Shown here in pieces: positions 6,830 to 23,517 of a stretch of 24,491 bases of DNA. The DNA lies in the sequence record NC_017345.1; one strand, given 5' to 3'. The position numbers and the translations under genes are program-made. How positions within the stretch are numbered: position 1 is the stretch's first letter; the number at the start of each line of letters is the position of its first letter. The notes under the pieces were generated by a model, which searched no databases, was not told where the DNA came from, and saw nothing but the letters and a program-made list of their open reading frames with translations. This DNA comes from a plasmid.

Positions 6830-7804
6830 TTATTGATTAAAGATATTATATTGTTTCATGTTTTTACGGCGCATATAAAGGGCATGTGTTTCTTCAAGTT
6901 CAGTTAGAATTGTTTGCATTAAATAAGCTTGCATTGAATTGATTGTTTCCTTTTGGCCTTTAACTCCCCTATCATGTATAGCTTTTTTAAGTCTTTTTAA
7001 AGAAGTTAATATTTCATCCTCAATGTCCTCTAACATGTAATGCATATCTTCATGCCTTGAATTAAATGATTTTTTTGCTTTAAGAATAACAGCCTTTATG
7101 ATTTCTAAATCTCTATAATCATATTTTAATAAATAATTAGTTAGTTGTTCTGGGAATTCTTGCAATAGCATTTCTTTATCATCAAAATTATGTGTAAATT
7201 GATTTGAATGATTACTAATTTCATTTTTGTACTTTATATCATTCAAGTCATTCATATCATTATTCTCAGTATCATTAAAGTCAATGTCATTAAAGTCAGT
7301 ATCATTAGTGTTCGATTTTCGAACTTCTGGACGTTCGATTTTCGAACTTCTGGACGTTCGATTTTCGAACTTCTGGACGTTCGATTTTCGAACTTCCTTC
7401 TCGCCGTAAGGTTCAACATCGTTTTCTTCTTTTTCTATTTTGTAAATATCACGTTCTGTGACAATAGGTTTCATTAAATATAGAATATTTGGTTTATTTA
7501 AACCACGTCGTTTTTGAATGAGTAGACCATCGTTTTCTAACCCTTTTTTTATTTTTGTTAACTTTTCTTTTTTACAATTTAAGATTTCCATTAGCTTTTC
7601 ATTTGAATAAACAAAGTAAATGTTACCATCTTCATCAACCCAGCTATTTTTAATAGATAAATTTAAGCGATCACGTAAGATAGCATAGGCTATTTTCATA
7701 TCATTAGTTAGATTTTTATAATTTTCACTGGTAAAGAATACTTTAGGGATTTGATAAAATCTTTCTTTGTAATTTTCTTGCACTGTAAAATATTGATTTT
7801 GCAT
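6830..7804 (-). CDS. rep: RepA_N-family theta-replication initiator (324 aa), pSK1/pSK41-type
   Basis: MQNQYFTVQENYKERFYQIPKVFFTSENYKNLTNDMKIAYAILRDRLNLS… is the remembered N-terminus of staphylococcal multiresistance-plasmid Rep. The central D/N-rich region holds the iterons. Confidence 0.9.
   Translation of the reverse strand: MQNQYFTVQENYKERFYQIPKVFFTSENYKNLTNDMKIAYAILRDRLNLSIKNSWVDEDGNIYFVYSNEKLMEILNCKKEKLTKIKKGLENDGLLIQKRRGLNKPNILYLMKPIVTERDIYKIEKEENDVEPYGEKEVRKSNVQKFENRTSRSSKIERPEVRKSNTNDTDFNDIDFNDTENNDMNDLNDIKYKNEISNHSNQFTHNFDDKEMLLQEFPEQLTNYLLKYDYRDLEIIKAVILKAKKSFNSRHEDMHYMLEDIEDEILTSLKRLKKAIHDRGVKGQKETINSMQAYLMQTILTELEETHALYMRRKNMKQYNIFNQ
7310..7397. repeat. 3.8 tandem copies of a 23-bp iteron (gttcgattttcgaacttctggac), each with an internal gttcga-ttt-tcgaac palindrome, inside the rep coding sequence
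   Basis: Read directly. An in-gene origin/Rep-box location is characteristic of RepA_N plasmids. Confidence 0.75.
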
Positions 7805-8229: not shown

Positions 8230-8972
8230 ATGAAAAGTGTGAAAAAGTTGAGTGAAGAATTAGGGGTTAGTAAGCAAACGATTTTTAATAATATTAAGCG
8301 ATTGAATATAGAGACAATAAAACAGGAAAACACTTCGTTTATTAAAGAAGATACCGATATAGAAAAAATCATTCAAAGAGTAAATGAAAATAAAAAGAAA
8401 TATGGTTTTGAAAGTACTACTGAAGACAAACAAAAAAAGGGTCGGATAATATTAATTTTGAATCGAAAAGCGATGCTCAAATAGTAGAAATCCTTAAAAA
8501 ACAGATTGATACTTTAAATAATCAAATTGAAAAACAAGAAAGTCGTCATGAAACAACAATTGAATTTTACAGAAAAGAGTTGCAAGAAAGGTCAAAATTG
8601 CTTGAAAATCAGCAAGTTCTGGCATTAGAGAGTAATAAAAAGATTCAAAAATTAGAAAATCAATTAGAAAAAGAAAAACACCTTAATTATCCCTTTGATA
8701 CATCTACTAACACTAGACAAAACGTTGATGCACAAGAAAAAACATATACTACTAATCCTGTAAATATTAACAGAGATCAGGAAGAAACTAAAGAAACAGA
8801 GATTCAATATAAGGATATATCTGGAAGTCAAAGCGACGAAAGTACACAAGGTGAAGAAGCAAAAAGAGAAGACGTTCCAGCTAATCTAAATGACAATGAT
8901 AGTGATATAGAAGAAAAGAGTGAAGAAACGGAACCTAAAAAGGGGTTTTGGAGTCGTTTGTTTGGTAGCTAA
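8230..8972 (+). pseudogene. par: pSK1-type Par partitioning protein (~247 aa; N-terminal HTH, C-terminal charged/coiled region) interrupted by a -1 frameshift in an A7 run (8432-8438)
   Basis: Track ORFs 8230-8484 (frame 1) and 8580-8972 (frame 0) are one gene. Frame 0 is open from 8430 to 8972, and reading A8 instead of A7 gives …TEDKQKKGSDNINFESKSDAQIVEILKK… continuous. Confidence 0.7.
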
Positions 8973-9018: not shown

Positions 9019-9563
9019 TATAGTGAGAACTTCTGGTAATCATCGATTATGTAAACTAATAAAAGGAGGAGTATTATGAAAACAGGTCCACTGAAATGTC
9101 CAAAATGTAACCAAGATTTATATATAAAAAAAGTTAGGTATCCAATATCTGATATTGAAACATTATGTTAACCACATAAAAAGCCCGAAACACTGATTTA
9201 ACGGTGTTTCGAGCTTTTTATCAACGATATCGGGTATGCATCTTTTATACATTTCCCTAAATGACGTGTTTTCATTATTTTTTCATCAACAACTATTTTG
9301 TATCTTTATTCAGTTATGATTTCTTTTCGCCAATCCAAAATTGAGAAAATGAATATCTTGATAGCCTTCTTTGATAACATATTTTGTAGCTTCTTATCTT
9401 TGATTGCCAAACATCATTTATCCCATCTTTTGTAGTTTTTTGTCTTTAGTACATAAAAATACTTTTTGGCTTTCATGTTATTTTATGGAAGGAGAGATTT
9501 GTTATAATGTTAGAGTCGTCTATCTCTCAGACGTCAACTTGACGTAGAGAGGAGGTGCGATTT

Positions 9564-9659
9564 ATGAATGAAATTCTTGTTCACATCATGACAACAGTAA
9601 TTAGTGGTTGTCTGGTCACGTTATTTGGTTATTGGCTCCATAAACGCGATAAAAAATAG
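9564..9659 (+). CDS. type I toxin peptide of the Fst/PepA1 (sprA) family, 31 aa MNEILVHIMTTVISGCLVTLFGYWLHKRDKK
   Basis: Similar to the second copy at 23301-23393 and to remembered PepA1 (MLIFVHIIAPVISGCAIAFFSYWLSRRNTK). Preceded by a TATAAT promoter and a 5'UTR in which cgtctatctctc can pair with gagaggagg (Shine-Dalgarno sequestration). Confidence 0.7.
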   Translation: MNEILVHIMTTVISGCLVTLFGYWLHKRDKK

Positions 9660-9684
9660 CATAGACGACTAAGTCAATTCACCA

Positions 9685-9752
9685 AAAAACCCCGAACTAC
9701 GGCCAATAGTTCGGGGTTTGGTGCGTTTACAAACGAAATTCTTGTTACTTTT
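9685..9752 (-). ncRNA. SprA-AS-like antitoxin RNA: promoter TTTACA-17-TATACT on the minus strand, bidirectional terminator 9688-9722; carries acaagaatttcgtt complementary to the toxin start-codon region
   Basis: Promoter and terminator read directly. 12-14 nt complementarity to 9566-9580 (aatgaaattcttgt) fits the established trans-like pairing mode of SprA1AS to the sprA1 RBS/start. Confidence 0.6.
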
Positions 9753-9873
9753 AGTATATATTCCATATTGCCTTTTGTAAACTTTTCTATTCTTATCAAT
9801 TCATTTCAAGGTGTCATAAAAATGTTTTCCTTTTTTAATTATGACTGACATTCCTTAAATTTCAATTTCAAAA

Positions 9874-10215
9874 TCAATCCAAGGACGAATGAATAGCCCA
9901 AACTAAGAATACGGCAACAGGAAAGAAAAGCCACCAAAAATCATAAAGAAAATCAACTATGAAAGGTACCCGGTTGTTCTCTCTATAATTTCCCTCTAAA
10001 ATAACTTTTTTAAAACATGTATCTCCTTTAATTAAATGATCTATAGTAATTCCAAATAAGTCACTCATAGCAATCAAAATATCTAAGGAAGGGTAATTTT
10101 TAGCACTTTCCCATTTAGAAACACTTTGTCTGGAAACCTTTAATATATTGGCTAATTCCTCTTGAGACCATCCTTTTAATTCTCTCTGTTCTTTTATAGC
10201 TTCAGCTAATTTCAT
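9874..10215 (-). CDS. XRE-family HTH regulator with C-terminal transmembrane anchor (113 aa)
   Basis: N-terminal LKGWSQEELANILKVSRQSVSKWESAKNYPSLDILIAMSDLFGITIDHLI is a Cro/C1 HTH; C-terminal FIVDFLYDFWWLFFPVAVFLVWAI is a TM helix. Confidence 0.7.
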   Translation of the reverse strand: MKLAEAIKEQRELKGWSQEELANILKVSRQSVSKWESAKNYPSLDILIAMSDLFGITIDHLIKGDTCFKKVILEGNYRENNRVPFIVDFLYDFWWLFFPVAVFLVWAIHSSLD

Positions 10216-21386: not shown

Positions 21387-23155
21387 TTATATTAAATTTA
21401 CATAATTTAAATCTATGAGTGGTACTTTTTCTTCTAATAATTCACTAAAAAATTCATCCACATTATCTTTTGAATTAATATAATTCCAGTTTAAATCGCT
21501 CTTATATCCTTTCTGATTTGAACCATATTTTTGACTCATGCAATAACTATTAATTTCTTTTTTTGAAATCACATTTTCTTTTATTAAATAGTAAATAAAG
21601 TATCTGAAATACCATAAATTTTGCGACATTACACCTACTGTTGCAGGATAATCATCCTTAGAATTTTTAAATAGATTATCAATTTTTTTTAATAAATTTT
21701 CTATTTTCCAAGACTTTCTTAGATATATTATTGTCAATAACGATAGAGATAAGTTATCTGTATTTTCATTTAGCAAACTCAAAACATCATTTTTTAAAAG
21801 AATATCTACATCATATTCAACAATATAAACAAGAATTTGGTATGTTTCTTGATGATAATTATTTTTATTATAAAATACTAACAATTTTCTAATTTCTTCG
21901 TTTCTATTTTTAAAATACTGTTTAACTTGTTTTGAGACTATTTTTTTATCGTCCATTTTAATAGTCAAATAGTTTAATAAAGATAGGCATCTATTTGTTA
22001 ATTTAGAGTCTTTTAGTGATAAATCTAATATGAATTGCAAGATATTGAATTTAGTAATATTATTCCTATATCCAAATATCTTACTTATTTGATGTTTATT
22101 TATTTTTTTCTTCTTTAAAGTATTTTCTATTACTGGGAAAATACTTTTTATTGCCCCTTTATTTCCTTTTCTTTCTTCATCTATACATAAATCAATAAAG
22201 TTCTTAATACCTATAATCCAAGTTTCATCTTTACTATTTGAGGAATAATTTTTGAAATAATTAAATATAAAGTCTTTGTTTTGTGGATGTATATATGGAA
22301 AATCATTTACTTCAGTTTTCTTGTCATTAATTTTTAATTCATATTTCATACATAGTTTGTTAAAATCTCTGTAAAATTTATCTTTCTCTTCTTCAAAATT
22401 AAATGAGAATGATATGTCATCCACATATCTCGCATATCTATACCCTTTATTTTCCATTTCAGAATCAATATAACACATATATAATTCACTAATAATACGA
22501 CTTAATATGTTGCCAGTAGGTATTCCATGAGTTTGATTATATTGACAGGATGTAATTAATTTATCTAATTGATTTGAAAAACCTTTCTTTCTTTTTTAGC
22601 ATTCTTCTTTCCCATTATTACCCAAGGTATGCTATGTGTATAAAGAGAATGATAAAAATTAGATAAATCAACGTTTAATATATGATTACCACCGTAAAGT
22701 AAAGTCTTTTTTAAATTGTCAGTAAATTTAAAATCAAAATCTGGAAGTGAAAAAAATTTAGATGTTGAAAATTTATTGGTTAGAAAAACTTCTTTAAATT
22801 CTTTTTTATTTTCTTGCATGAAAAACATCAAATTTAAATAGCTATAAATATTAGGAATCTTATATTCTCTTCTTGATGTATTATTTTTCGGAATAGTAAA
22901 TATTATTGGTTCAGTACTACGTATGTTTCTATCATTAAAAAATTTTTTAATGTAAAATGGATTATAAGTAATATATTCAGCTAATTTACTCATATTAAAT
23001 ATTTTCAAATAAAATGCATCTGATTTACCGTAGCTGTTTAATTCTGTTAAATCTTGATTATTTTTAGGAGTAATATCAAAATAACCATAATTAATTAAAA
23101 AATTAGTACTAAATAAATCATCGTACAATCTTTCCATTCTTTTTTTACTCTTCAT
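21387..23155 (-). pseudogene. Abi-type single-protein reverse transcriptase (~590 aa if read through): an N-terminal RT domain with motifs 1-5, then a ~300-aa K/N/Y-rich alpha-helical C-terminal domain. Broken by a -1 frameshift in an A6 run (22592-22597)
   Basis: Track ORFs 23155-22565 and 22478-21387 belong together. Motifs: FTIPKNNTSRREYKIPNIYSYLNLMF (1/2), NVDLSNFYHSLYTHSI (3), THGIPTGNILSRIISELYM (4, found by extending the downstream frame upstream across 22479-22595), RYARYVDDISFSF (5, YxDD). Reading A7 instead of A6 joins …GKKNAKK-KGFSNQLDKLITSCQYNQTHGIPTGN…. Confidence 0.75.
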
Positions 23156-23207: not shown

Positions 23208-23272
23208 AACGAAAATGATTAACAATTAATGCACCAATCCCCACACTATTGCAGTAGTGTGGGGATTTTTTC
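23208..23272 (+). ncRNA. SprA1AS-like antitoxin RNA: promoter TTGCAT-18-TATAAT (23181-23210), ~60-nt RNA ending at bidirectional terminator aatccccacactattgcagtagtgtggggatttttt
   Basis: Read directly. The RNA carries aacgaaaatgattaacaa, which matches the DNA around the toxin start codon (23376-23393, gtgaacgaaaatgattagcaa) and so is complementary to the toxin mRNA there. Confidence 0.6.
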
Positions 23273-23300
23273 GATGCTGGCTTATAAAGTCGCCTATTAA

Positions 23301-23393
23301 TTATTTGTTGCGTTTACTAAGCCAATAAGTATAATACGCAACAGCACAGCCACTGATGACTGGTGCTATGATGTGAACGAAAATGATTAGCAA
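23301..23393 (-). CDS. PepA1-like type I toxin, 30 aa (TTG start) MLIIFVHIIAPVISGCAVAYYTYWLSKRNK
   Basis: Near-identical to remembered S. aureus PepA1 (MLIFVHIIAPVISGCAIAFFSYWLSRRNTK). GAGGAGG Shine-Dalgarno; the 5'UTR can fold (cgcctatctctc / gagaggagg) to occlude the RBS; TATAAT promoter at ~23445. Confidence 0.75.
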   Translation of the reverse strand: MLIIFVHIIAPVISGCAVAYYTYWLSKRNK

Positions 23394-23517
23394 AGTAATG
23401 CACCTCCTCTCTTCGTCGATTGACGCCTGAGAGATAGGCGACTCTATTATTATACCATCTGTGAATATACAAGCATATCTACTTCCGATAAGTCGTCTTA
23501 TGTTATATAACTTCGTT

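Follow-up and report, generated by a model that had tools for sequence, protein, structure and literature searches.

An Fst-family toxin gene on a staphylococcal RepA_N plasmid

We analyzed a stretch of plasmid DNA of 24,491 nucleotides (nt) (NC_017345.1; hereafter, the window), which represents a Staphylococcus aureus RepA_N blaZ plasmid and whose whole-window matches are S. aureus beta-lactamase/cadmium plasmids. The analysis centered on a compact locus, denoted module A, which a preliminary description made from the letters alone had interpreted as a type I toxin-antitoxin module of the Fst/PepA1 family, one of two on this replicon. Module A comprises a short gene on the plus strand, a promoter in front of it, a convergent promoter on the minus strand and a terminator between the two that can serve both strands; the second module of the window is denoted module B.

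The toxin open reading frame (ORF) of module A occupies positions 9564-9659 (+), with an ATG at 9564 and a stop codon ending at 9659, and encodes the 31-residue peptide MNEILVHIMTTVISGCLVTLFGYWLHKRDKK. An upstream in-frame GTG at 9555, which yields a 34-residue ORF in the ORF listing, was rejected as the start because this codon lies within the Shine-Dalgarno sequence; the RefSeq annotation of the toxin coding sequence is 96 nt long. The peptide is identical to RefSeq WP_001002796.1, the protein in plasmid pCA12, which is annotated as "type I toxin-antitoxin system Fst family toxin". It matched the NCBIfam family NF033608 (type_I_tox_Fst) over residues 3-30 with 57.2 bits (cut-off, 26; E = 1e-15) and the nuclear magnetic resonance structure of PepA1 (PDB 4b19) over residues 4-31 with E = 1.1e-6, so that the initial assignment of exactly this 31-residue peptide to the Fst/PepA1 family is upheld.

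The Fst/Ldr superfamily is characterized by a single hydrophobic transmembrane helix, a conserved tryptophan and a charged C-terminus (PMC7472228; PMC2887945), a description that the module A peptide fits with its hydrophobic stretch I4-L25, tryptophan W24 and charged, basic tail HKRDKK. The helices of these peptides further carry a P/D/S/T-x-x-x-G(C) motif, in which the cysteine is specific to staphylococci, and a TxxxG clade is known from several Staphylococcus species (PMC7472228); the module A helix contains the TxxxGC form of this motif (T11-V-I-S-G15-C16). Judging from its sequence, the peptide is thus an Fst-family toxin, and by homology it would be expected to be toxic and to damage the membrane. 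The suggestion that it is closer to a PepA2-like class was not borne out: identity is 16/31 (52%) to PepA2, as given in Fig. S1 of PMC6393315, versus 15/30 (50%) to PepA1, which has a PxxxGC motif, so that a "PepA2-like" label is not useful. PepA2 shares the core IMT..ISGCLV..F..WL with the module A peptide and, at 35 residues, has a longer tail. The nearest relatives are other TxxxGC peptides of staphylococcal plasmids, at 65-68% identity, and by sequence comparison the module A peptide is therefore best placed in this TxxxGC plasmid clade, equidistant from PepA1 and PepA2.

A segment of 451 nt around module A matched 444 plasmids in PLSDB, all from Staphylococcus and 51 of them at ≥99% identity. 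In the matching records the ORF carries the same Fst family annotation as in RefSeq, and the antisense RNA described below is without annotation. The module A toxin has its own RefSeq entry, and the family, the RNA architecture, the plasmid prevalence and the antitoxin specificity have been published.

Predicted promoter and fold of the toxin mRNA

Upstream of the ORF lies an extended -10 promoter, TGtTATAAT, at 9500-9508 (+), with TG at 9500-9501 and TATAAT at 9503-9508, where the preliminary description had also placed a TATAAT promoter (at about 9503). The element TGnTATAAT is found at the same position in 20/20 homologous modules, and in module A it sits 6 nt upstream of a G that corresponds in the alignment to the 5'-terminal nucleotide of the SprA1 RNA as published. 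The predicted toxin mRNA (RNA I) is about 211 nt long and spans 9515-9725 (+), as delineated by end-to-end alignment with SprA1 (208 nt) and SprA2 (213 nt); the sequences of SprA1, SprA2 and their antisense RNAs, SprA1AS and SprA2AS, were taken from Supplementary Figure S1 of PMC6393315.

The predicted fold of RNA I has a minimum free energy of -69.8 kcal/mol (z = -4.9 relative to shuffled sequences). In this structure, the 5' end of the mRNA (9515-9523) forms a long-range helix with 9661-9669, directly after the stop codon; the corresponding perfect 10-nt inverted repeat (9514-9523/9661-9670) was also recovered by repeat search, and the helix is present in both the single-sequence minimum free energy structure and the family consensus fold, with one covarying pair (CG, 8; UG, 4; UA, 2). 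Next to the 5' arm, CUCUC (9524-9528) is predicted to pair with GAGAG (9547-9551), which correspond to columns 10-14 and 35-39 of the consensus fold. The GAGAG sequence opens the extended Shine-Dalgarno region GAGAGGAGGTG (9547-9557, +), which contains a GGAGG core at 9551-9555, 8 nt before the ATG, and is unchanged in nearly all homologues. The consensus fold, built from 14 RNA I homologues, includes 13 covarying pairs and keeps the 5'-3' helix, the CUCUC/GAGAG helix next to the Shine-Dalgarno sequence, a small hairpin that covaries (AU/GC) and the terminator; the CUCUC/GAGAG helix itself is nearly invariant among these homologues and so displays no covariation. In the consensus fold, the pairing of the 5' untranslated region with the Shine-Dalgarno sequence that had been proposed earlier is confined to this helix, which reaches no further than the upstream flank of GGAGG and its first G; the remaining GGUG is predicted to be paired by the antisense RNA instead.

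A bidirectional terminator and a predicted convergent antisense RNA

Both predicted RNAs of module A end at one intrinsic terminator (9687-9719), a perfect 13-bp stem (9687-9699/9707-9719) with a 7-nt loop that is seen in the folds of both strands and four of whose stem pairs covary across variants. The minus-strand tail is TTTTTT (U6), and the plus-strand tail reads UUUGGUGCG, matching the 3' end of SprA1 as published. A rule-based terminator scan of 9350-9900 listed none, although the 13-bp hairpin is unambiguous in the repeat search and in the folds, because the A/T ends of the stem use up the T-run.

On the minus strand, the consensus scan identified a promoter at 9753-9781, composed of TTTACA (9781-9776), a 17-nt spacer and TATACT (9758-9753). 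These are the elements that had been described as a "perfect" promoter, a term that overstates a match at 10/12 consensus positions; the -35 hexamer, moreover, falls 16-21 nt beyond 9760, where the module had been taken to end. Promoter-like sites are common in this AT-rich region, with 7 found versus 2.4 expected in 550 nt, and the hexamers alone constitute weak evidence. The minus strand 6 bases downstream of the -10 element reads AACAAGAAUUUCGUUUGUAAACGCACC, followed by the hairpin and the U6 tract, and the predicted antitoxin RNA (RNA II), 63 nt long, accordingly extends from 9746 to 9684 (-), with a 5' end uncertain by about 2 nt. The published SprA1AS and SprA2AS RNAs, 60 and 61 nt long, respectively, align with this candidate, which agrees with the previous estimate of an approximately 65-nt antisense RNA ending at the shared terminator and is predicted to fold into a mostly single-stranded 5' domain followed by the terminator hairpin (-21.7 kcal/mol). 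The layout is thus convergent, with promoters at 9500-9508 (+) and 9781-9753 (-) and the terminator at 9687-9719; the ORF ends at 9659, and the overlap of the two RNAs lies outside it. By homology to the SprA systems, both RNAs would be expected to be transcribed.

A diverged direct repeat provides complementarity to the toxin start region

The first 27 nt of RNA II are complementary to 9554-9581 (+), a target that spans the 3' edge of the Shine-Dalgarno sequence, the spacer, the start codon and codons 2-6. The complementarity stems from a direct repeat, the distal copy of which (9720-9746, +) is the template of the RNA II 5' domain. The repeat search returned it in two parts, 9561-9581/9726-9746 (21 nt, 86% identity) and 9554-9562/9720-9728, which join into a 27-28-nt unit whose two copies agree at 24 positions and are distinguished by 3 transitions and a gap of one base. 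In the duplex of the two RNAs, all 3 substitutions of module A become G·U wobbles, and the start codon ATG reads ACA in the distal copy; a systematic loss of the start codon from the distal repeat was considered and rejected, being true of module A and not of every variant. The antisense segment acaagaatttcgtt that had been singled out before as complementary to the toxin start does pair with it; it is the reverse complement of 9732-9745 and part of this longer repeat.

The match is far beyond chance expectation. Two copies of the 12-mer GAAATTCTTGTT, and no more, are present in the window versus 0.04 expected, and pairing of the RNA II 5' domain with the translation-initiation region (TIR) of the toxin is predicted to yield a duplex of -33.9 kcal/mol, compared with a mean of -9.0 kcal/mol (standard deviation, 2.7; best, -20.0) for 2000 shuffled antisense sequences. 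In addition, about 42 nt of the 3' domains of RNA I and RNA II, across the terminator, are fully complementary.

Covariation of the repeat across staphylococcal plasmid variants

With the 296 nt of the module as query, a blastn search for distant relatives retrieved 1615 PLSDB records, 1609 of which are staphylococcal. For comparison, 18 PLSDB loci spanning 69-93% identity were combined with the two modules of the window, yielding nine distinct variants, the peptides of which are 39-97% identical to that of module A. Each variant repeats its own TIR (GGTGC, spacer, start codon and codons 2-6) in the approximately 27 nt directly 3' of the terminator, as exemplified by the TIR/repeat pairs ...ATGTTCGAAGCTTTTGTT / atgcacgaagcttttgtt and ...ATGACATTACTATTTGTT / atgacaccactatttgtt. 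To assess intermolecular covariation, each TIR was linked to the antisense 5' domain of the same variant so as to form an artificial hairpin, and a consensus structure was derived; 11 of the 21 intermolecular pairs show compensatory changes on both sides. In the 9 x 9 matrix of predicted duplexes, cognate pairs have energies of -31 to -37 kcal/mol, non-cognate pairs average -15 kcal/mol, and the only cross-reaction involves two closely related variants (L006 and L009).

The transition differences between repeat copies are predominantly compatible with G·U pairing (13, versus 3 that would create A·C; about 11 versus 2 after collapsing related variants). At the sequence level, this bias favors selection for RNA pairing over simple homogenization of the repeat, with the qualification that the counts are small and not tree-corrected.

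An antisense promoter is likewise a constant feature: a -35/-10 pair with a 17-18-nt spacer, located 6 nt before an AACAA/AACGA start, is present in all nine variants, in three unrelated classes at the same position (TTTACA/TATACT, TTGCAT/TGtTATAAT and TTGAAG/TATGAT). Module A and the pN315-type copy (L002), which is 93% identical to it, do not differ in either repeat copy or in either hexamer of the antisense promoter; their ORFs differ by 5 synonymous codons and 1 non-synonymous codon, suggestive of purifying selection on the toxin ORF.

Two modules of distinct predicted specificity on one plasmid

Module B (23208-23442) has the same anatomy as module A. Its toxin ORF (23301-23393, -) encodes the peptide MLIIFVHIIAPVISGCAVAYYTYWLSKRNK, its predicted RNA I runs from 23442 to 23231 (-) with a TTG start codon, and its predicted RNA II occupies 23208-23271 (+) behind a promoter consisting of TTGCAT, an 18-nt spacer and TGtTATAAT; the repeat copies are ggtgcattactTTGCTAATCATTTTCGTT / ggtgcattaattgttaatcattttcgtt. 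The module B toxin is PepA1-like (72% identity, PxxxGC motif), and the module matches 1207 PLSDB records. The peptides of modules A and B are 57% identical (17/30), roughly as estimated before (about 50%); the modules are distinct paralogues, and their RNAs are predicted not to cross-pair. A search of the window for a third module or an orphan antitoxin found none.

The predicted cross duplexes between the TIR of one module and the RNA II 5' domain of the other (-10.5 and -10.6 kcal/mol) are at the shuffle background, compared with -33.9 and -30.8 kcal/mol for the cognate duplexes, and the gain upon co-folding of full-length RNAs is -5.4 and -6.1 kcal/mol for the cross pairs versus -38.0 and -31.3 kcal/mol for the cognate ones. 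Because the predicted cross-pairing does not exceed background, we expect the two modules to be orthogonal, in keeping with the non-redundant antitoxin specificity put forward earlier. There are precedents for such behavior: SprA1/SprA1AS and SprA2/SprA2AS show no cross-regulation, either in vitro or in vivo (PMC6393315), an example of orthogonal modules that reside in the same cell, and the homologous antitoxins of par(pAD1) and par(EF0409) were found by experiment not to be cross-reactive (PMC7472228).

Both paralogues are thus present, as the preliminary description emphasized, but their co-occurrence is not in itself notable, as two copies are common. In one survey, two Fst copies were found in 50/62 Fst-carrying MRSA (methicillin-resistant S. 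aureus) plasmids (PMC10135026), plasmid NZ_CP022608.1 carries both modules of the window at 100% identity, and "Type I, Fst family" systems are listed for pMW2, pN315 and pLAC-p03 (PMC8545097). A more speculative idea, to which we assign a low probability, is that of "segment addiction", in which the two modules would be fully orthogonal and each would protect its own part of the plasmid, module A the rep/par-like backbone and module B the AbiK/Tn552-bla accessory block, instead of both protecting the replicon as a whole. If so, derivatives losing either segment by deletion or recombination would be killed, and the presence of two diverged copies on most Fst-bearing staphylococcal plasmids would be explained.

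Proposed mechanism and alternative explanations

Starting from the sequence features of module A, its family membership and conservation, the covariation and the predicted specificity, we consider it highly probable that module A is an intact par/SprA1-type type I toxin-antitoxin cassette, composed of an mRNA and a trans-acting antisense RNA, with a likely role in plasmid addiction. According to this model, the extended -10 promoter would drive synthesis of the approximately 210-nt mRNA (9515-9725) for the 31-residue single-helix membrane peptide. The 5' end of the mRNA would pair just past the stop codon, and the CUCUC/GAGAG helix would occlude the upstream part of the Shine-Dalgarno sequence, a very strong one, and so damp translation. 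From the opposite strand, a constitutive-looking promoter would produce the approximately 63-nt RNA ending at the same bidirectional terminator. The 5' domain of this RNA is complementary to the toxin start without being encoded opposite to it, because the DNA carries the diverged direct repeat, and would therefore act in trans on GGUGCG, the spacer, the AUG and codons 2-6. By homology to characterized systems, pairing with 9554-9581 would block ribosome loading, and the complementary 3' domains of about 42 nt may extend or nucleate the duplex. Upon plasmid loss, RNA II would decay faster than RNA I, as in homologous systems, the peptide would be made and the membrane would be damaged, so that the cassette likely serves in post-segregational killing, that is, plasmid addiction.

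Several observations weigh against this interpretation or its individual parts. The toxin promoter has no recognizable -35 element, which is why the consensus promoter scan missed it, and the plus-strand U-tract of the terminator is poor. The module A peptide has no match to Pfam PF13955 (Fst_toxin) at E ≤ 10; this model, on which the sister peptide of module B scores 13.9 bits against a gathering score of 36, comprises 21 positions only and evidently falls short of the staphylococcal clade. The Rfam model RF01797 (fstAT) matches 9607-9704 (-) with 49.5 bits, below its gathering score of 72. The covariation of the repeat could partly result from concerted evolution of the DNA repeat; the G·U bias speaks against this, yet rests on about 13 independent substitutions. 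Furthermore, the chromosomal SprA1 and SprA2 are not addiction modules, and a killing role of module A is suggested by its plasmid location only. Finally, in the literature consulted we found no transcript, toxicity or plasmid-stability data for the exact module A variant, and PMC6496109 continues to describe the copy of the pSK1 family as "putative".

The alternative that best withstands these considerations, even if it appears unlikely, is that module A is a functional pair without a role in addiction, its peptide being a stress-released or cytolytic factor similar to PepA1/PepA2 or an abortive-infection effector that travels on plasmids. The location of module B next to an AbiK-type gene would fit such a role, and two modules per plasmid look redundant for addiction. 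On the other hand, relatives of module A are very common on staphylococcal plasmids (the 1615 PLSDB records mentioned above), par of pAD1 is a proven post-segregational killer, and the fst-like system of pSK41 is listed as a maintenance determinant (PMC4911067).

Less probable still, and in our estimate quite improbable, is control exerted mainly through the approximately 42-nt 3' overlap, in which cleavage of the duplex and decay of the mRNA, as in txpA/RatA, would take the place of a block to ribosome binding at the 5' repeat. [quoted passage not shown] However, the overlap is locked in stable terminator hairpins of both RNAs, and the covariation of the 5' repeat with its own TIR, together with the G·U bias, would be needless if the 3' overlap alone mattered; in par and in SprA1/SprA2, moreover, translation is blocked by repeats or non-overlapping 5' domains (PMC4885055; PMC6393315; PMC4147584). 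A chance ORF of only 31 codons with fortuitous promoter-like hexamers in AT-rich intergenic DNA, for which the abundance of such sites could be invoked, has a negligible probability and was excluded by the match to the family hidden Markov model (E = 1e-15), the conservation on 444 plasmids, the RNA structure and intermolecular covariation, and the 12-mer shared by the repeat copies.

Relationship to characterized systems

The cassette of module A is the Fst-like system of staphylococcal theta-replicating plasmids, such as pSK1, pSK41, pMW2, pN315, pLAC-p03 and VRSAp (Weaver 2009, Kwong 2010 and Jensen 2010, as cited in PMC4885055 and PMC8545097), with which it shares the RepA_N backbone context; the fst-like system of pSK41 is listed among plasmid maintenance determinants (PMC4911067). 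The pN315-type copies that are 93% identical to module A reside on plasmids of 24,653-24,655 bp, the size given for pN315, and module A is an allelic variant of the commoner plasmid copy, with one amino-acid difference (V12/A12). The "pSK1" of PMC3543317 is an unrelated Escherichia coli construct that shares the name.

Among chromosomal systems, the closest likeness is to SprA1/SprA1AS and SprA2/SprA2AS, in which the antisense RNA, encoded in cis, acts in trans through a non-overlapping 5' domain and prevents ribosome loading (PMC6393315; PMC4885055). End-to-end alignments with these RNAs were obtained for the predicted RNA I and RNA II of modules A and B alike, with shared first bases (GUCGYCUA), Shine-Dalgarno block, terminator, UUGGUG 3' end and (A)ACAA start of the antisense RNA. 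With SprA1, module A has in common the 5' end GUCGYCUAUCUCUC, the Shine-Dalgarno region GAGAGGAGGUG and the terminator followed by UUGGUG, and SprA1AS resembles RNA II in its length of about 60 nt, in its (A)ACAA/ACAACG start and in its repeat-derived 5' domain that targets the ribosome-binding site and start codon in trans. Unlike the plasmid-borne module A, SprA1 is chromosomal and lies in a pathogenicity island, and the pairing sequences differ, so that cross-repression between the two systems is not expected. SprA2/SprA2AS, which has the same architecture, belongs to the core genome.

For par of pAD1, the founder of the family, post-segregational killing has been demonstrated (PMC4885055; PMC7472228); its direct repeats DRa and DRb pair and block the ribosome, and a 5' stem-loop sequesters the ribosome-binding site (PMC4147584; PMC7472228; PMC4885055). 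Like module A, par is plasmid-borne and has convergent RNAs, a bidirectional terminator, an overlap outside the ORF and repeat-based complementarity to the TIR. It differs in having two clearly separated repeats, compared with a single 27-28-nt unit with a single-base bulge in module A, and in a toxin that lacks the conserved tryptophan and cysteine and has an acidic tail (PMC7472228), whereas the module A peptide has both residues. The resemblance to ldr/rdl and hok/sok is more limited. The Ldr toxins fall into the same superfamily and likewise have a tryptophan after the transmembrane helix and a charged tail (PMC7472228), and hok mRNA shows a 5'-3' fold-back similar to that of RNA I of module A. 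However, in both systems the gene for the antisense RNA lies opposite the 5' portion of the toxin mRNA, and regulation relies on processing of that mRNA (PMC7472228), and neither has a 3'-convergent RNA bearing a repeat-derived trans-acting domain.

Annotation of the antitoxin RNA

The low score of RF01797 on module A can be viewed in light of where the model falls. On module B, it matches 23250-23350 (+) with 88.5 bits, the only match in the window at the gathering threshold, and in both modules the matched interval covers the 3' arm of the terminator and the antisense of the 3' half of the toxin ORF. The intervals homologous to SprA1AS/SprA2AS, 23208-23271 (+) and 9746-9684 (-), lie across the terminator from these matches. 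From these alignments, the model seems to be offset by about 40 nt from the real antitoxin, and, since the interval that it covers is not homologous to SprA1AS, it is a poor test of the antitoxin; automated pipelines relying on it will misplace or miss Fst-type antitoxins. In contrast, the unannotated antitoxin RNA of module A (9746-9684) and its promoter can be placed within about 2 nt by homology to SprA1AS. Beyond correct annotation, the significance of the locus is small, apart from the bearing that the predicted lack of cross-protection would have on plasmid-curing or anti-plasmid strategies aimed at antitoxin RNAs.

Genomic surroundings

Module A lies beside the rep/par-like backbone of the plasmid, and module B beside an accessory block with AbiK and Tn552-bla genes. 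The RepA_N initiator gene is located at 6830-7804 (-). Between it and module A is a DUF536 par-like gene that is split into two frames in the window, 8230-8484 (+), which encodes the N-terminal helix-turn-helix part (84 residues), and 8580-8972 (+), which encodes the C-terminal 130 residues; the pCA12 homologue is intact, with 257 codons, and the two-frame version represents either a frameshift pseudogene or a sequencing error. Directly downstream of the module A antisense promoter is a gene for an XRE-family helix-turn-helix protein (9874-10215, -; 113 residues; HTH_3, 62 bits) with a hydrophobic C-terminal tail. The same gene adjoins the pN315-type copy and may be a conserved neighbor of this module variant.

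Other contents of the window include genes for an ABC ATPase and a DUF1430 protein, a lactococcin-972-type locus, blaZ-blaR1-blaI and Tn552-type genes. Directly adjoining module B is a gene for an AbiK-type abortive-infection reverse transcriptase, which appears to be split or interrupted, with two adjacent ORFs: 22565-23155 (-) matches the N-terminal part of the profile (positions 2-176, 250 bits), and 21387-22478 (-) matches the C-terminal part of the same profile (positions 213-543, 364 bits).

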